This document shows, piece by piece, positions 3,239-11,031 of a stretch of DNA of 18,322 nucleotides. This DNA is from a virus. Positions within the stretch are counted from its first letter, which is position 1; each line of letters begins with the position of its first letter. Below the pieces are notes generated by a model. It did no database searches. It saw only the letters and a list, made by a program, of their open reading frames with translations, and had not been told where the DNA came from. Location of the stretch: UHGV virus genome UHGV-0162284. One strand, given 5' to 3'. The position numbers were made by a program, and so were the translations under genes.

Positions 3239-3616
3239 ATGAAAAAGAAAGTAATCAGCGGGCTGTTTCTGATGTTATGGATGGCGCTGTTGATCGCAGC
3301 AATGGTGTATCCACAGGGGATTTTTCCGGTACTGGCAGCGTCCGGTGTCTGGGTAGCCTGTCTGCTGACATGGGCGGTAATTCCGGTAGCACTGGCTGCG
3401 TTAATTAAGAACGGCCCGCTCTGGCAGGAGTTGAGGGCATCTTTGCTAAAGACCATTACCCGAAAAGAAAACGTATTTATCAGCTGGGTGATGCGATTGC
3501 TGATTGTCGTAAGTTTCGCCTGGACGGGGTGGGCTATTACCCTGGTCTTTTATCTGCTGACCGTTATTGCCTTCTGGATGATCCGTAATCAGATTGCGCA
3601 ACAGGTAGCAGCATGA
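3239..3616 (+). CDS. lysA: LysA-like membrane protein (lysis timing accessory)
   Basis: Track ORF 3167..3616; preferred ATG 3239 (MKKKVISG) two nt after the endolysin stop; 125 aa with about four hydrophobic helices; position matches P2 lysA. Confidence 0.65.
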   Translation: MKKKVISGLFLMLWMALLIAAMVYPQGIFPVLAASGVWVACLLTWAVIPVALAALIKNGPLWQELRASLLKTITRKENVFISWVMRLLIVVSFAWTGWAITLVFYLLTVIAFWMIRNQIAQQVAA

Positions 3617-4041
3617 ACCGGTTGCTGCTGGTTGTGCTGGCGTTATTACTGGCGGCGCTGCGCTGGCAGACGTGGCGGCTGGCTGATGCCAGCCAGACCA
3701 TCAGCACGCAGGCAGACGAGCTTCGGAGCAAAAGCCAGGCACTGGCAAAGAGCAACAGCCAGCTTATCAGCCTGTCCATTCTGACTGAAACCAATAACCG
3801 GGAGCAGGCGCGGCTCTATGCCGAAGCAGAACAGACCAGTGTACTGCTGAGACAACGACAACACCGGATTGAGGAACTGAAACGTGAGAACGAGGATTTA
3901 CGCCGCTGGGCTGATACTCCTTTGCCTGCTGACATTATCCGGCTGCGGGAACGCCCCACACTCACCGGAGGTGCAGCTTACCGTCAGTGGTTGTCCGCGA
4001 GTGACGCCGTGTCGGCTGGGGCAGGCAGCGCCGCGCACTAA
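3613..4041 (+). CDS. lysB: LysB, Rz-like inner-membrane spanin subunit
   Basis: 142-aa ORF overlapping the lysA stop; N-terminal TM segment (LLLVVLALLLAAL) then a coiled-coil-like charged region (EELKRENEDLRRW); position matches P2 lysB. Confidence 0.7.
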   Translation: MNRLLLVVLALLLAALRWQTWRLADASQTISTQADELRSKSQALAKSNSQLISLSILTETNNREQARLYAEAEQTSVLLRQRQHRIEELKRENEDLRRWADTPLPADIIRLRERPTLTGGAAYRQWLSASDAVSAGAGSAAH

Positions 4042-4174
4042 CGGTGACCTGAACGCGTTGCTGGATGAAACGGAGGCCGCCTGGGCGGTCTGTGCAGACA
4101 AAGTGGACATGATTATTGCGTGTCAGGAGCGAAACAGTGAACAAACCACAATCCCTGCGCCACGCCCTCAATAA
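3884..4174 (+). CDS. lysC: LysC, Rz1-like outer-membrane lipoprotein spanin subunit (starts inside lysB in another frame)
   Basis: GTG 3884 preceded by GAGGAA; signal peptide ending in lipobox L-S-G-C (AAGLILLCLLTLSGC); Pro-rich mature part; begins inside lysB and runs past its end, the overlapped spanin architecture of P2. Confidence 0.6.
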   Translation: MRTRIYAAGLILLCLLTLSGCGNAPHSPEVQLTVSGCPRVTPCRLGQAAPRTNGDLNALLDETEAAWAVCADKVDMIIACQERNSEQTTIPAPRPQ

Positions 4175-4568: not shown

Positions 4569-5007
4569 ACTGCAGAAGGTGGACGACTGGCTGAGTGCCT
4601 TGCTGGCGAATCTGGAACCAGCCTCGAGAAGCCGCATGATGCGCCAGCTGGCGCAGGAACTTCGCCGGACACAGCAGCAGAATATCAGGATGCAGCGCAA
4701 CCCTGACGGCAGCAGCTATGAACCGCGACGGGTAACAGCACGCAGTAAAAAAGGCCGTATCAAACGTCAGATGTTTACAAAGCTGCGCACCACAAAATAC
4801 CTGAAAACTGCCGCCAGCGCTGATTCTGCCAGCGTACAGTTTGAAGGTAAGGTGCAGCGTATTGCCCGCGTTCATCACTACGGCTTACGTGATCGCGTCA
4901 GTCGCAAAGGACCTGAGGTCCGTTACGCAGAGCGTCGCCTTCTGGGTGTAAATGATGATGTTGAGGCAATGACCCGCGACATGATTCTGCAATGGCTGGC
5001 GGGGTGA
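4561..5007 (+). CDS. S: Tail completion protein (P2 gpS family)
   Basis: 148-aa ORF overlapping the R stop; MMRQLAQELRRTQQQNIRMQRNPDGS...QFEGKVQRIARVHHYGLRD resembles P2 gpS. Confidence 0.85.
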   Translation: MAELQKVDDWLSALLANLEPASRSRMMRQLAQELRRTQQQNIRMQRNPDGSSYEPRRVTARSKKGRIKRQMFTKLRTTKYLKTAASADSASVQFEGKVQRIARVHHYGLRDRVSRKGPEVRYAERRLLGVNDDVEAMTRDMILQWLAG

Positions 5008-5075: not shown

Positions 5076-5654
5076 ATGAACGCACAATTAACCGAAATCA
5101 TGCGCCTTATCACCAACCTGATCCGCACAGGTGTAGTCACCGAAGTGGACCGGGAAAACTGGCTTTGCCGGGTGAAAACGGGCGATCTTGAAACCAACTG
5201 GATCAGCTGGCTGACGCTGCGTGCCGGGAATGCCCGCACATGGTGGCGACCATCGGAAGGTGAACAGGTGGTGCTGCTGAGTCTGGGCGGCAATCTTGAA
5301 ACCGCCTTTGCGTTGCCCGCTGTCTATTCGAATCAGTTCGCTCCACCGTCGACGTCGGCGGACGCCTGCGTGACAGAACATCCTGACGGTGGCTGGTTTG
5401 AATACGAACCAGCCACCGGGCGCTGGTATGTCAGGGGCATCAAATCAATGGTCATTGAGGCCGCTGACAACATCACCATGAAAACCACTGAGTTTGTACT
5501 GGAGGCTGACCGCACGCGCATTAACAGCGAAGTGGTGATCAATGGTGGCGTTACCCAGGGCGGCGGAGCGATAAGTTCTAACGGGATCGTGGTTGATGCG
5601 CATCAGCATACAGGCGTCCTGAAAGGCGGCGATACAACCGGAGGCCCGGTATGA
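5076..5654 (+). CDS. V: Baseplate spike/assembly protein (P2 gpV family)
   Basis: 192 aa; N-terminal region (GVVTEVDRENWLCRVKTGDLETNWISWL...) and Gly-rich C-terminus (HQHTGVLKGGDTTGGPV) match gpV-type spikes. Confidence 0.9.
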   Translation: MNAQLTEIMRLITNLIRTGVVTEVDRENWLCRVKTGDLETNWISWLTLRAGNARTWWRPSEGEQVVLLSLGGNLETAFALPAVYSNQFAPPSTSADACVTEHPDGGWFEYEPATGRWYVRGIKSMVIEAADNITMKTTEFVLEADRTRINSEVVINGGVTQGGGAISSNGIVVDAHQHTGVLKGGDTTGGPV

Positions 5655-6010
5655 CGCTTTATATCGGGATGAACAATACCAGCGGTAAAGCCATTACTGA
5701 TATTGACCATCTGCGTCAGTCGGTGCGGGACATTCTACTGACACCGCAGGGTAGCCGCATTGCCCGTCGTGAATATGGTTCCCTGCTGTCGACACTGATA
5801 GACCAGCCACAAAATCCGGCATTACGCCTGCAGGTCATGTCGGCAGTGTATGTGGCGCTGAGTCGCTGGGAGCCACGGCTGACGCTGGATTCCATCACCA
5901 TCAACAGCAATTTTGACGGTTCAATGGTGGTGGAGCTGACCGGGCGGCGTAATAACGGTGTGCCTGTTTCCCTTTCCGTATCAACAGGAGCAGAGAATGG
6001 CAGTGATTGA
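5651..6010 (+). CDS. W: Baseplate wedge protein (P2 gpW, gp25-like)
   Basis: 119 aa overlapping the V stop; DIDHLRQSVRDILLTPQGSRIARREYGS is the gpW/GPW_gp25 signature. Confidence 0.9.
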   Translation: MTLYIGMNNTSGKAITDIDHLRQSVRDILLTPQGSRIARREYGSLLSTLIDQPQNPALRLQVMSAVYVALSRWEPRLTLDSITINSNFDGSMVVELTGRRNNGVPVSLSVSTGAENGSD

Positions 6011-6905
6011 CCTTTCGCAGTTGCCTGCGCCGCAGATTGTGGATGTGCCGGACTTTGAGACGCTGCTTGCCGAACGCAAGGCAGAATTTGTGGCGCTTCA
6101 TCCGAAAGATGAGCAGGAAGCAGTGATCCGCACTCTGGAACTGGAATCTGAACCCGTCACCAAATTGCTGCAGGAGAACGCTTACCGTGAGTTGCTTCTG
6201 CGCCAGCGCATTAACGAAGCCGCGCAGGCTGTGATGGTGGCTTACGCGATGGGCAGCGATCTTGACCAGCTCGCTGCCAACTACAACGTGAAACGCCTGA
6301 CGGTGACGCCTGCTGATAATGACGCTGTGCCGCCCGTTGCAGCTGTGATGGAAAGCGATGAAGCGTTACGCCTGCGTGTGCCTGCAGCCTTTGAAGGGCT
6401 TTCAGTTGCGGGGCCAACTGCAGCTTATGAATTTCATGCCCGAAGCGCCGACGGTCGGGTGGCGGATGCCAGTGCAACCAGCCCGGCACCTGCAGAGGTG
6501 GTGCTGACTGTCCTTAGCCGCGAAGGCGATGGAACTGCAGAAAAAGACCTGCTGGACGTGGTGGAAAAAGCTCTGAACAGTGAGAACGTCCGCCCGGTGG
6601 CTGACCGTCTTACGGTTCGCAGCGCAGAAATCATCCCGTATCGCGTGGAAGCCACCATTTTTCTCTATCCTGGACCGGAAGCAGAGCCGGTAATGGCAGC
6701 GGCAAAAGCCAGCCTGCAGAAGTACATCGCCAGTCAGACGCGTCTTGGTCGGGATATTCGCCGTAGCGCCATCTTTGCCGCCCTGCATGTTGAGGGTGTG
6801 CAGCGTGTGGAGCTGGCTTCTCCGCTGGCGGATGTGGTCCTGAACAAAACACAGGCGGCATCATGTACGCAGTGGAGCGTAACCAACGGAGGAACGGATG
6901 AATAG
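5997..6905 (+). CDS. J: Baseplate assembly protein (P2 gpJ family)
   Basis: Track ORF 5958..6905; preferred ATG 5997 (MAVIDLSQLPAP) behind CAGGAG; long collinear similarity to P2 gpJ (FEGLSVAG, HARSADGRVAD, RLGRDIRRSAIFAALHVEGVQRVELASPLAD). Confidence 0.92.
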   Translation: MAVIDLSQLPAPQIVDVPDFETLLAERKAEFVALHPKDEQEAVIRTLELESEPVTKLLQENAYRELLLRQRINEAAQAVMVAYAMGSDLDQLAANYNVKRLTVTPADNDAVPPVAAVMESDEALRLRVPAAFEGLSVAGPTAAYEFHARSADGRVADASATSPAPAEVVLTVLSREGDGTAEKDLLDVVEKALNSENVRPVADRLTVRSAEIIPYRVEATIFLYPGPEAEPVMAAAKASLQKYIASQTRLGRDIRRSAIFAALHVEGVQRVELASPLADVVLNKTQAASCTQWSVTNGGTDE

Positions 6906-7503
6906 TCTGCTGCCACCGGGTTCAACACCACTGGAGCGCCGACTGGCGCAAACCTGCAGCGGGATTTCTGATCTGCAGGTGCCGCTGCGTGACTTGTGGA
7001 ATCCGGCAACCTGTCCGGTCAGTTTCCTGCCTTATCTCGCCTGGGCGTTCTCTGTAGATCGCTGGGACGAGGGCTGGACAGAAAGCGTCAAACGCCAGGT
7101 GGTGAAGGATGCTTTTTATATTCATCAACATAAAGGGACCACCAGTGCCGTGCGGCGGGTGGTGGAGCCGTTCGGCTTTCTGATCCGCATTATTGAGTGG
7201 TGGCAGACCGGAGAGGCACCGGGCACGTTTCGCCTGGATATCGGCGTGCAGGACCAGGGCATCACTGAAGATACCTATCTGGAACTTGAGCGGCTGATAA
7301 GCGATGCCAAACCATGTAGCCGTCACATGATCGGCATGTCCATCAATCTGCAGACCAGCGGCCCGCATTGGGTGGGAGCCGCCAGCTATCTTGGCGAAGA
7401 AATCACGATCTATCCGTATATCAACGAAACGATTATTTCCGGTGGCACCGCGCATGAAGGCGGGGCGGTCCATGTTATTGACACAATGAGAGTGAATCCA
7501 TGA
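6898..7503 (+). CDS. I: Baseplate/tail protein (P2 gpI family)
   Basis: 201 aa; ELWNP..TCP...LPYLAWAFSVDRWDE and GTFRLDIGV motifs match P2 gpI; overlaps the J stop and the H start. Confidence 0.9.
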   Translation: MNSLLPPGSTPLERRLAQTCSGISDLQVPLRDLWNPATCPVSFLPYLAWAFSVDRWDEGWTESVKRQVVKDAFYIHQHKGTTSAVRRVVEPFGFLIRIIEWWQTGEAPGTFRLDIGVQDQGITEDTYLELERLISDAKPCSRHMIGMSINLQTSGPHWVGAASYLGEEITIYPYINETIISGGTAHEGGAVHVIDTMRVNP

Positions 7504-9182
7504 GCACAAAATTTTATACCCTGCTGACGGATATTGGCGCGGCGAAACTTGCCAGCGCCGCCGCGCTCGGTGTGCCGCTAAAAATTACCCATATGGCGGT
7601 GGGCGATGGCGGCGGAGTATTGCCAACGCCGGACGCAAAGCAGACGGCACTGGTAAATGAGAAACGCCGGGCTGCGCTGAATATGCTTTATATCGACCCG
7701 CAGAACAGCAGCCAGATTATTGCTGAACAGGTGATCCCTGAAAACGAGGGCGGTTGGTGGATACGTGAAGTGGGCCTGTTTGATGAGTCCGGGGCATTGA
7801 TTGCCGTGGGCAACTGCCCGGAAAGCTATAAGCCGCAACTGGCTGAAGGCAGCGGGCGCACCCAGACCGTGCGCATGGTGCTGATTACCAGCAGTACGGA
7901 CAATATCACCCTGAAAATCGACCCTGCCGTTGTGCTGGCAACCCGCAAGTATGTCGATGACAAGGCACTGGAGCTGAAGGTGTACGTGGATGACCAGATG
8001 GCAAAACATCTTGCCGCACTGGACCCGCATTCGCAGTATGCACCCAAAGAAAGTCCGACGTTTACCGGAACCCCCAAAGCGCCAACGCCAGCGGCGGGGA
8101 ATAATACCACGCAGCTTGCGACCACCGCATTTGTTCAGGCGGCACTGACGGCTCTTATTAATGGTGCGCCAGCCACGCTTGACACGCTAAAAGAAATAGC
8201 CGTAGCCATTAACAATGATCCGAAATTCAGTACCACCATTAACAATGCGCTGGCACTGAAAGCGCCGCTGTCGAGTCCGGCACTCACCGGAACGCCAACA
8301 GCCCCCACGGCGGCGCAGTCGGTCAACAATACACAGATTGCCACTACGGCTTTTGTGAAATCGGCGATTGCGGCAATGGTGGGTTCTGCACCTGCGGCAC
8401 TGGATACACTGAACGAACTAGCGGCGGCGCTGGGGAATGACCCGAACTTTGCCACGACAATGCTTAATGCACTGGCAGGTAAACAACCGCTGGACAATAC
8501 GCTGACTAATTTGAGTGGAAAGGATGTTGCTGGTCTTCTCGCATACCTTGGTTTGGGAGAAGGTTCATTTGGGTTCAGAAATCTGGTTGCCTTCACAACG
8601 GCTGGAGTAACAAACTGGACTGTTCCTGAAGAGTTGCGCAAAGGAAGAAAATGTTACGTCAAAGTTATTGGTGGCGGTGCGTCAGGAGGGATAGGTTCAA
8701 CAACCGCTTCAGCCGTTACATGTGGCGGAGGAGGTGGTGGGGGCGGAGTTGCTGAGGGGCTGGTAGATTTAACTGGTATAAACAGTGTTTCGATTACGGT
8801 TGGTGCCGGTGGTGCGCCTGTGTCTGGTATTTCTGTAAACGGTAAAAATGGTGGCTCGAGCAGTTTCGGGACTTACATGTCAGCTTCCGGAGGCTATAGC
8901 GGAGGCCAGCCTTCCGGAGGGTTAGGCGCAGTTGGTGTCGGGGGAACAATTAATACATCGCTTGGGCCAGGTTCTCCAGGTTCCATTGCTTCTGCCGCAT
9001 CGGGAGCTGGTAATGGTGGTTCTGGTGGTGGCCCCGGAGGAGCAGGTTCATTCAGAGATACAGCTAACGGAAAAGCGGTATCAGCAGTTGGGCCTGGAGG
9101 TGGCGGTGCTGGATTATGTCCTAATTCATCAACGGGTCAGTCGGGTGCCGGAGCAGATGGCGCAGTTTATATTTACTGGTGA
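7500..9182 (+). CDS. H: Tail fibre protein (P2 gpH family): conserved N-terminal shaft fused, in the present orientation, to a glycine-rich C-terminal tip
   Basis: 560 aa; N-terminus (MSTKFYTLLTDIGAAKLASAA...MAVGDGGG...ESYKPQLAEGSGR) and NDPNFATTMLNALAGKQP match P2 gpH; similarity ends at LGLGEGS, where the crossover site lies; the ~190-aa C-terminus is Gly/Ser-rich with a GGGGGGGG run. Confidence 0.9.
   Translation: MSTKFYTLLTDIGAAKLASAAALGVPLKITHMAVGDGGGVLPTPDAKQTALVNEKRRAALNMLYIDPQNSSQIIAEQVIPENEGGWWIREVGLFDESGALIAVGNCPESYKPQLAEGSGRTQTVRMVLITSSTDNITLKIDPAVVLATRKYVDDKALELKVYVDDQMAKHLAALDPHSQYAPKESPTFTGTPKAPTPAAGNNTTQLATTAFVQAALTALINGAPATLDTLKEIAVAINNDPKFSTTINNALALKAPLSSPALTGTPTAPTAAQSVNNTQIATTAFVKSAIAAMVGSAPAALDTLNELAAALGNDPNFATTMLNALAGKQPLDNTLTNLSGKDVAGLLAYLGLGEGSFGFRNLVAFTTAGVTNWTVPEELRKGRKCYVKVIGGGASGGIGSTTASAVTCGGGGGGGGVAEGLVDLTGINSVSITVGAGGAPVSGISVNGKNGGSSSFGTYMSASGGYSGGQPSGGLGAVGVGGTINTSLGPGSPGSIASAASGAGNGGSGGGPGGAGSFRDTANGKAVSAVGPGGGGAGLCPNSSTGQSGAGADGAVYIYW
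8536..8561 (+). repeat. Left recombination site of the invertible segment (gix/hix-like 26-bp imperfect palindrome)
   Basis: TTCTCGCATACC-TT-GGTTTGGGAGAA inside H (codes ...AYLGLGE); matches the reverse complement of 10336..10361 at 19 of 26 positions, with the same central TT. Confidence 0.65.
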
Positions 9183-9189
9183 GGTTCAT

Positions 9190-9360
9190 ATGTGGGCAAG
9201 AATTGAAGAAAATAAAGTAGAAGAGATAACGGAAATTAATCCTGAAGGAAGATTCCATCCATCATTAATATGGAAAGAATGCCCTGCTGACACACAGCAG
9301 GGGGATTTATATATTGATGGTGAGTTTATTGTGCAGTCTCCGGCAGTTCAGGCCAGATAA
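9190..9360 (+). CDS. Small hypothetical protein (57 aa) coupled to H; candidate minimal chaperone/accessory for the Gly-rich tip, or a remnant
   Basis: ATG 9190 lies 8 nt after the H stop behind GGTGAGG; clearly AT-richer than the flanks by eye; the track's 142-aa ORF 8932..9360 is an in-frame extension overlapping H and is not favoured. No family recognised by eye. Confidence 0.3.
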   Translation: MWARIEENKVEEITEINPEGRFHPSLIWKECPADTQQGDLYIDGEFIVQSPAVQAR

Positions 9361-9934
9361 CATCCGGCGCGGTGCTGGTATCTGTTGCCGTCACCGCGTC
9401 AATGTAATCCAGCACAGCGTTAAGTCTGGTTGTTTCTGCCTGCGTCAGTTTACGTCCGGCCTGCAATTTCAGTTGAATCAGACTGATGGAAGCCATTGCT
9501 GCATCAATCAGTGACTGGCGCTGTGCTTCTGCCGCTTCTACTGCGGCACCGTGTTGTGCCTCAGTATCTGTCACCCATTTTTCACCATCCCATTTATCGT
9601 GTGGCGTTAACGGGGCGATAGTGGTTGTATTTTCGGGATAGTCGCCTAGTGCTGTGATTTCTTTGGCATCTCCCGTTTCGGTGTTATAGACGATTTCACC
9701 GCGATGGTCTGACACATATTCCCATGATTTTAAATCCACAGAACGGCAAATTGTATAACCAGCCTTAGATGTAACAGGAGCGTCTAAACAGGAATATGCT
9801 GGAATACCGACACCCACTGCAAGATATTCAGTTGATGCAGAAATATATTCCCGCGTCTCACCATCATAGTTATAGACGGTAATATTCCCCGCCTTCGTGG
9901 CAATAAACTCGCTATTTAATACGGCGTTATCCAT
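9326..9934 (-). CDS. Tail fibre assembly chaperone (Tfa / Mu U / P2 gpG-like), paired with the alternative fibre tip
   Basis: 202 aa on the minus strand; C-terminal region (LIQLKLQAGRKLTQAE...RLNAVLDYIDAV...APDVIWPELP) is typical of Caudovirales tail-fibre assembly proteins; its start overlaps the stop of the upstream minus-strand cassette (TAATG). Confidence 0.78.
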   Translation of the reverse strand: MDNAVLNSEFIATKAGNITVYNYDGETREYISASTEYLAVGVGIPAYSCLDAPVTSKAGYTICRSVDLKSWEYVSDHRGEIVYNTETGDAKEITALGDYPENTTTIAPLTPHDKWDGEKWVTDTEAQHGAAVEAAEAQRQSLIDAAMASISLIQLKLQAGRKLTQAETTRLNAVLDYIDAVTATDTSTAPDVIWPELPETAQ

Positions 9935-10389
9935 TATGCAGCCCTCACGATAAAGTTAAATGCAATATTTCGTGGACGGGTTTCACTCCCGCCATATGAT
10001 GATGTAAATCCCGAATATGCCCGGTGTCCCGCATCCGTCGTATTAGCCCAGGAAGGACCGCTAGAAGTATAGATGACCCCATTGTAATCATGGCCGTGTG
10101 CCTCAATGCTCCCGTCCTGCGCAGACAGGAGAGTCCGTCCTGAATCAATTCCTCTTCCATCATCCCACCCACGAATGAATTCGCCGCGTAAATCTGGCAA
10201 TTTATTTGTCGGATAAACTTTTGCCAGTTCCGGATACTCTTCGGCAGAAAAAGCTGCACCGTTGCATTTCAGCCAGCCTGTTGGCGGTGTGACTGAAGGC
10301 CACGGAACAGGTACGCCAACAGGCAATGCTGAGCCTTCTCCTAAACCAACGTTTAAGAAAATGCAGATGTAACGGCTAACTGGCATCAT
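9934..10389 (-). CDS. Alternative tail-fibre C-terminal cassette (Sv'-like, tail-collar-type receptor-binding region); promoterless until inversion fuses it to H
   Basis: Minus-strand ORF carries GLGEGS at residues 15-20, the same junction peptide as H at the left site; downstream PVPWP...GWLKCNGAAFS..YPELAKVYP...LPDLRGEFIRGWDDGRG matches the phage tail-collar pattern. The first 14 codons of the track ORF are probably not translated in vivo. Confidence 0.72.
   Translation of the reverse strand: MMPVSRYICIFLNVGLGEGSALPVGVPVPWPSVTPPTGWLKCNGAAFSAEEYPELAKVYPTNKLPDLRGEFIRGWDDGRGIDSGRTLLSAQDGSIEAHGHDYNGVIYTSSGPSWANTTDAGHRAYSGFTSSYGGSETRPRNIAFNFIVRAA
10336..10361 (-). repeat. Right recombination site of the invertible segment (gix/hix-like)
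   Basis: Plus strand TTCTCCTAAACCAACGTTTAAGAAAA; its reverse complement TTTTCTTAAACG-TT-GGTTTAGGAGAA aligns with the left site; lies ~50 bp upstream of the invertase start. Confidence 0.65.
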
Positions 10390-10410
10390 CTCCGGTTTTT
10401 ATTCAGGGGG

Positions 10411-10983
10411 ATGATCATGCTTATTGGCTATGTACGCGTGTCAACAAATGACCAGAACACCGATTTGCAACGTAATGCACTGAACTGCGCGGGATGTGAG
10501 CGGATTTTTGAGGATAAAATCAGTGGCACTAAGTCCGACAGACCGGGGCTGAAAAAACTGCTCAGGACACTATCGGCAGGAGACACGCTGGTTGTCTGGA
10601 AGCTGGACAGGTTGGGGCGCAGTATGCGGCATCTTGTTACGCTGATAGAAGAGTTACGCCAGCGTGGCGTGAATTTCCGAAGCCTGACTGACAGTATTGA
10701 TACCAGCACCCCAATGGGCCGTTTCTTTTTTCATGTCATGGGGGCTCTGGCTGAAATGGAACGCGAACTGATAGTTGAACGTACCAGGGCGGGGCTGGCT
10801 GCAGCTCGTGTTAAAGGCAGAGTAGGTGGACGCCGTCCTAAGTTGACCAGCGAACAGTGGGCACAGATTGGGCGTTTACTCGAGGCTGGAGAATCAAGAC
10901 AGCGTATTGCACTGATTTTTGATGTAGGCGTTTCTACCATTTATAGAAAATTTCTGGCCAATAAGAGCATTGAATCCCCCTGA
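10411..10983 (+). CDS. Serine recombinase, DNA invertase (Hin/Gin/Cin/Pin family)
   Basis: 190 aa; N-terminal catalytic motif IGYVRVSTNDQ with the active-site Ser, then GDTLVVWKLDRLGRS, and a C-terminal HTH (QRIALIFDVGVSTIYRKF); length and layout are those of Hin/Gin. True start may be ATG 10417. Confidence 0.95.
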   Translation: MIMLIGYVRVSTNDQNTDLQRNALNCAGCERIFEDKISGTKSDRPGLKKLLRTLSAGDTLVVWKLDRLGRSMRHLVTLIEELRQRGVNFRSLTDSIDTSTPMGRFFFHVMGALAEMERELIVERTRAGLAAARVKGRVGGRRPKLTSEQWAQIGRLLEAGESRQRIALIFDVGVSTIYRKFLANKSIESP

Positions 10984-11031
10984 ATCAGCATTATTTTGAT
11001 TATCCCTGCAAGTAGACAAATACCGTCATTT

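Follow-up and report, generated by a model that had tools for sequence, protein, structure and literature searches.

A collar-type fibre tip and its assembly protein as the very probable off half of a two-state switch of the tail fibre in a P2-like prophage of E. coli

Organisation of the switch

The DNA analysed here (UHGV virus genome UHGV-0162284, 18,322 nucleotides, the whole of which is called the window below) spans the late genes of a P2-like prophage of E. coli. It carries a minus-strand cassette that encodes an alternative C-terminus for the tail fibre and, next to it, a tail fibre assembly protein (Tfa), and this cassette is very probably the 'off' half of a two-state tail-fibre switch. 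A first-pass annotation of the sequence had proposed an alternative fibre tip with a tail-collar signature, paired with a Tfa. Most of that proposal holds. The cassette does lie in an invertible segment, with two 26-bp sites and an adjoining serine invertase, and the matches of its two products to the collar and Tfa families are both significant, so that the proposal survives the refuting test that the first-pass annotation had set for itself. The cassette is an orthologue of e14 stfE-tfaE, set in P2-type surroundings. Though correct, the finding is an ordinary one, the mechanism and the module both being known already. Invertase-driven swapping of fibre C-termini is textbook knowledge for Mu, P1 and e14.

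The mechanism that we propose is as follows. The constant 5' part of the fibre gene (7500-8549) would be joined to one or other of two alternative 3' cassettes, which face each other inside the segment of about 1.8 kb. The neighbouring serine invertase would bring the inverted 26-bp sites together, Fis probably being bound at the time to an enhancer in the invertase's own gene, cut at the central TT/AA dinucleotide, and so flip the segment. In the present orientation the fibre would end in a glycine-rich tip, followed by a 56-aa open reading frame (ORF). After the flip, the same promoter and the same N-terminus would be read via the residues GLGEGS into a 131-aa collar tip, to give a 487-aa fibre, and the coupled 202-aa Tfa, read next, would fold or cap that tip. 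A lysogen population would then release two types of particle, differing in adsorption specificity. On this reading the prophage can display either of two unrelated tips on its fibre. Such bet-hedging has been familiar since Mu, P1 and e14, and P2-like prophages of E. coli are already among the documented cases.

Genomic context and the constant part of the fibre

The 2.7 kb from 8300 to 11000 were searched, and match the chromosome of E. coli SCU-306 with 99.9% identity, so that the same sequence is present and annotated in RefSeq. The RefSeq gene list for SCU-306 runs through baseplate V, W, J and I, the fibre gene, a tail fibre assembly protein, a 'phage tail protein', a recombinase, the sheath, the tube, E/E' and the tape measure. 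The gene order is V-W-J-I-H...FI-FII-E-T, the same as in P2.

The tail fibre gene (7500..9182, plus strand) is P2 H-like and in its present form encodes 560 aa, annotated in RefSeq as 'phage tail protein', with matches to PF12571 and PF21722. The first of these is the N-terminal domain (E=8.5e-65). The constant part, which is 356 aa long counting GLGEGS, is 53% identical to P2 H. The plus-strand fibre has ...LAYLGLGEGSFGFRN, and the six residues GLGEGS are common to both reading frames, as the first-pass annotation had said of the junction. Both tips share GLGEGS because the recombination site itself encodes it.

The collar-type tip and its assembly protein

The alternative fibre C-terminus (9934..10349, minus strand) consists of the GLGEGS junction and the 131-aa collar-type tip. 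The minus-strand ORF that contains it (9934-10389) translates as MMPVSRYICIFLNVGLGEGSALPVGVPVPWPSVTPPTGWLKCNGAAFSAEEYPELAKVYP...IVRAA and includes ...GLGEGSALPVGVPVPWPSVTPPTGWLKCNGAAF..., exactly as first quoted. The tip matches the Pfam family Collar (PF07484) with E=1.1e-14 and 54.5 bits, well over the gathering score of 24 bits, which confirms the collar domain claimed for it, and its PHROG match is to tail collar fiber (1.9e-72). The 202-aa ORF (9326..9934, minus strand) is likewise the Tfa that it was said to be, matching Caudo_TAP (PF02413; E=3.5e-32, residues 78-199) and PHROG 105, tail fiber assembly (E=3e-96). Its start does overlap the stop of the tip: base 9934 is common to the two ORFs, in the sequence TAATG, where the Tfa ATG overlaps the tip stop codon, and because of this overlap we take tip and Tfa to be translationally coupled. 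A PDB sequence search with the Tfa gave no match.

For the collar tip, the best match among solved structures is the receptor-binding tip of T4 gp37, 2XGF (E=3.4e-15). The alignment begins at the first residue past GLGEGS and spans the AHxH motif and the C-terminal strand, with AHGH of the collar tip aligned to AHSH of gp37, and NIAFNFIVRAA to NIAFNYIVRLA. The collar tip has a single HxH. An alignment of alleles displays a conserved collar and a conserved C-terminal strand, with a hypervariable insert between them. This insert is about 45 aa long here; two other E. coli alleles have 60-75 aa, and lambda has about 170 aa. The plan of the tip is that of lambda Stf and T4 gp37, namely a conserved collar, a short hypervariable insert, and a C-terminal strand running back to the collar. 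By analogy with gp37, the hypervariable insert should hold the receptor specificity, and if it is the specificity region, then the crossover site would fall exactly at the domain boundary. The single-sequence AlphaFold2 model of the collar tip (pLDDT 36.3) was too poor for use.

On sequence comparison, the relatives of the cassette are e14 StfE/TfaE, lambda Stf/Tfa and T4 gp37. Lambda Stf (orf-314) carries PF07484, as here, with 44% identity across the collar and an identical NIAFNYIVR at the C-terminus. Lambda Tfa and the Tfa of the window share 37% identity. Lambda Stf and T4 gp37 (2XGF) are like the collar tip in having a collar, then a needle region with metal-binding HxH motifs, and then a C-terminal strand. 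They differ from it in the length of the insert, which is about 45 aa with one HxH in the collar tip, whereas in lambda and gp37 it is about 170 aa with many. In addition, lambda and T4 do not switch their tips by inversion. A compact collar tip with a variable insert of this size, together with its Tfa, makes an exchangeable module for host-range engineering of P2-type phages and tailocins.

The collar pattern had also been described as one seen in the Mu S and P1 S tips, and here the first-pass annotation was mistaken. Homology to the Mu and P1 tips was rejected: Mu S, Mu S', P1 Sv' and P2 H are all without PF07484, and none of them gives a BLASTP match to the collar tip at E<=1e-3. The Pfam domains of Mu S are Gp34_trimer and Phage_fiber_2, and those of Mu S' and P1 Sv' are gp37_C. 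The chaperones of Mu and P1 belong to PF02413, the same Pfam family as Tfa, though Mu U, Mu U' and P2 G have no BLASTP match to it.

The glycine-rich tip and the small ORF

The fibre at present ends in a glycine-rich tip of 204 aa (8568-9182, plus strand), which matches Gly_rich_2 (PF21722; E=4.7e-10, residues 366-560). The tips of the two orientations had been called structurally different, and at the level of Pfam families this is so, Gly_rich_2 and Collar being unrelated. We infer that the two states differ in receptor or host; the stronger proposal, that they serve 'very different receptors or hosts', is plausible. A PDB sequence search with the glycine-rich tip gave no match, and its single-sequence AlphaFold2 model (pLDDT 43.8) was too poor for use. 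By analogy, it may form a polyglycine lattice like that of S16 gp38 or Pam3 gp24 (PMC9608196). The tip has runs such as GGGGGGGG. Relatives of it are found in only two phage records of the INPHARED collection.

Directly 3' of the glycine-rich tip is a small ORF of 56 aa (9190..9360, plus strand), which RefSeq annotates as 67 aa, starting from 9157. The 56-aa ORF has no Pfam or PHROG match. It is kept beside glycine-rich fibre genes in Yersinia phage MLG42 (74%, E=1e-16) and in Pseudomonas phage Amjad_SA (49%, E=2e-11), and because it is kept in this position it is probably a real, uncharacterised tip-specific helper; the sequence comparison makes it likely that this helper is the assembly factor of the glycine-rich cassette. 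The glycine-rich tip and the conserved small ORF would be an unstudied adhesin/helper pair. The small ORF stands where a normal Tfa would be, and for its last 11 or so codons it runs over the 3' end of the Tfa gene that converges on it.

A terminator scan picked out a G+C-rich hairpin (perfect over 8 bp; 9282..9302, both strands) between the convergent cassettes, with a folding energy of -15 kcal/mol and z=-4.1. On the plus strand it is within the small ORF, and on the minus strand it lies 24 nt past the Tfa stop. It may act as a terminator of the fibre operon, the minus strand giving the clearest case, and may block transcription from entering the antisense cassette. Its U-tracts are weak.

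Crossover sites and invertase

The left crossover site (8536..8561) reads TTCTCGCATACC TT GGTTTGGGAGAA, with its core TT at 8548-8549. The right site (10336..10361) has the reverse complement TTTTCTTAAACG TT GGTTTAGGAGAA, with the core appearing as AA at 10348-10349 on the plus strand. When the left site is compared with the reverse complement of the right site, 20 of the 26 positions are identical: the core is the same, the right half-sites are nearly identical and the left half-sites differ. Position 10349, which the first-pass annotation had given as the end of the tip, is at the central dinucleotide of the right site. The 22-nt motif shared by the two sites occurs exactly twice in the 18.3-kb window, once on each strand, against 0.00 occurrences expected from shuffles, and a third crossover site, as would make a shufflon-like multi-state switch, was looked for in the window and not found. 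The right site can be aligned with the site beside e14 pinE and with the Mu gix site. The sites are inverted with respect to each other and bound the segment of about 1.8 kb.

Directly outside the segment, and adjoining the right site, is the gene for a 188-aa serine DNA invertase of the Pin/Cin/Gin group (10417..10983, plus strand). It matches Resolvase (PF00239; E=1.7e-52) and HTH_7 (PF02796; E=4.9e-15), and its identity is 86% with e14 PinE, 78% with P1 Cin and 74% with Mu Gin. Its catalytic serine is within the motif YVRVSTNDQ. The start is placed at 10417 (MLIGY...) by alignment with gin, cin and pinE and by RefSeq, the ORF being open from the ATG at 10411 (MIMLIGY...). In NCBIfam, the fibre, the collar tip, the Tfa and the small ORF have no match, and the invertase matches only recombinase models, far below their cut-offs.

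Gin, Cin and Hin depend on a recombinational enhancer that binds Fis and acts in cis, from within the 5' part of the invertase gene. The invertase gene of the window contains a stretch (10435..10506, plus strand; nt 19-90 of the gene) whose homologue in P1 cin is annotated as a Fis-dependent enhancer, with 56 of 72 nt identical as compared with 39 of the following 60, a comparison that is confounded by the region being coding. A Fis-like 15-mer at nt 71-85 of the gene is shared with pinE, gin and cin, and is also within coding sequence. Because the stretch is coding, its homology counts as consistent with a candidate enhancer and not as independent evidence for one, and the switch is presumed to be Fis-dependent.

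Natural occurrence of both states

When the segment 8550-10347 is flipped in silico, the constant 356 residues come into frame with the collar tip to give a 487-aa fibre, and the Tfa follows. The flipped junction exists in nature. In E. coli MSB1_4I it is found as one unbroken match with 98% identity, and the annotation there gives a 487-aa 'phage tail-collar fiber domain-containing protein', with a tail fibre assembly protein after it. The tip of this fibre differs from that of the window at one residue (136 of 137 identical), and its Tfa has 97% identity. In a set of 5,426 complete E. coli genomes, this cassette pair occurs nine times in the orientation of the window and seven times flipped.

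Horse faeces yielded two sister isolates, SWYHX138.261ft and SWYHX138.33gt, which carry an element 94% identical to that of the window. Over 5,749 bp the two isolates are identical, except for 1,834 bp that are an exact reverse complement, and the breakpoints are inside both sites, downstream of the central TT. Inversion in vivo thus holds for a homologous element that is 94% identical, as distinct from this exact copy, which presumably inverts in the same way. Inversion has been published for e14 and for P2-like prophages (PMC4272514, PMC12529663), and in P2-like EPEC prophages the fibre C-terminus inverts, with coexisting orientations shown by sequencing (PMC4272514).

These observations also bear on whether the off cassette might be the leftover of an ancestral switch, no longer inverting, never expressed and heading to decay. 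The arrangement does seem to have become frozen in the related phage MLG42, which has a glycine-rich cassette and no annotated invertase as far as the sheath gene, and a difference between the left half-sites of the two crossover sites would fit a switch that has been lost. However, both ORFs of the off cassette are intact and are 97-99% identical to copies that are expressed elsewhere, the invertase is full length and has its catalytic serine and its HTH, the crossover sites keep identical cores, and both orientations are present among closely related genomes, the sister isolates included. We therefore regard a decaying leftover as highly improbable, and prefer the reading of the cassette as the off half of a two-state switch.

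Expression of the off cassette

In its present position the cassette is preceded by a short leader, MMPVSRYICIFLN (10350..10389, minus strand), which is outside the segment and appears both in the ORF list and in RefSeq, within the CDS WP_170969044.1. The leader supplies its own ATG, in frame and 40 nt outside the segment, to whichever cassette is lying there, and so creates a 151-aa stub ORF analogous to e14 stfE, whose product StfE begins MPFACYFFIFINVGLGEGS. The 151-aa 'phage tail protein' of the annotation is the C-terminal cassette of a fibre and not a free-standing gene, and the annotation should be corrected. The off cassette is presumably silent, though having an ATG of its own it could be translated at a low level.

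A more radical suggestion would be that the 151-aa stub (from its own ATG at 10389 or 10386, plus the collar tip) and the Tfa are expressed in the lysogen and serve the host, for example by hiding a surface receptor from other phages. The in-frame ATG outside the segment, as in e14 stfE, and the annotation of the stub as a CDS in RefSeq are both compatible with this, and e14 stub chimeras expressed from plasmids reportedly alter the adsorption of T2: according to a 2025 paper, over-expressed chimeric StfE2 of e14 blocked T2 adsorption (PMC12529663). In the same paper, however, native StfE, which is a collar-type stub like this one, was 'not effective', and it was over-expression that gave the effects (PMC12529663). 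A promoter scan of the window found no promoter-like site reading into the stub, the matches being at background level (4, against 3.2 expected). The spacing of the ribosome binding site is also poor, with GGAG abutting the first ATG and only 3 nt from the second, and a fibre tip without its trimerising shaft would be unlikely to fold as it does in the virion. A host function for the stub is thus very unlikely. It is also very unlikely that the switch doubles as an inversion-controlled device for superinfection exclusion or defence against phages, by analogy with what has been claimed for StfE2 of e14. If it did, the lysogen would produce the tip as a free fragment able to cover a surface receptor, this fragment being the collar tip with Tfa in the present orientation and the glycine-rich tip after the flip. 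We return to the two-state fibre switch for the comparisons that follow.

Comparison with known switches

The closest system is the invertible P segment of e14, an element of E. coli K-12 (stfP-tfaP / stfE-tfaE, with PinE). It has the same layout, with a constant 5' part of the fibre gene, two convergent cassettes each of tip plus chaperone, and the invertase just outside; it also has the same crossover motif, TTGGTTTGGGAGAAGG, and its segment is about 1.8 kb long, as here. StfE of e14 carries PF07484 like the collar tip, and is 62% identical to it overall and nearly identical across the collar and across the first 80 or so residues, whereas the central receptor-facing insert differs. TfaE is 86% identical to Tfa. 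The two elements differ in their surroundings, e14 being a defective lambdoid remnant while the window has a complete P2-type tail module, and in the partner cassette, which in e14 is a gp53-like StfP with TfaP and here is the glycine-rich tip with the 56-aa ORF.

The G segment of Mu (S/U, S'/U', Gin) and the C segment of P1 (Sv/U, Sv'/U', Cin) share the switching logic, the family of the invertase and the architecture of the sites, and the position of the candidate enhancer inside the invertase gene appears to match. Their segments are longer, at 3 kb and 4.2 kb respectively. The prophages of EPEC E2348/69 and carotovoricin Er likewise have tail modules of P2 type, where the C-termini of the fibre are exchanged by an invertase. 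Among such P2-like prophages and tailocins the content of the cassettes varies from element to element, and some have three sites and four states, whereas the window has two sites only.

The same collar and Tfa cassette is found in the 'on' position in MSB1_4I (locus 5288-6129) and in SF-468, together with a different off cassette, consisting of a gp53-like tip and a 146-aa Tfa, as in StfP/TfaP of e14. Cassettes have evidently been shuffled between P2-like prophages and e14-like elements. In the P2-like Yersinia phage vB_YpM_MLG42 (locus 3600-4115), a glycine-rich cassette lies opposed to the fibre gene, and between it and the sheath gene no invertase is annotated, an arrangement that looks like the frozen remnant of a switch. 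Finally, the leader MMPVSRYICIFLN of the window resembles the stfE leader of e14, MPFACYFFIFIN (e14 locus 4618-4656), and the start ATGATGCC is kept in both elements, between the crossover site and the start codon of the invertase.
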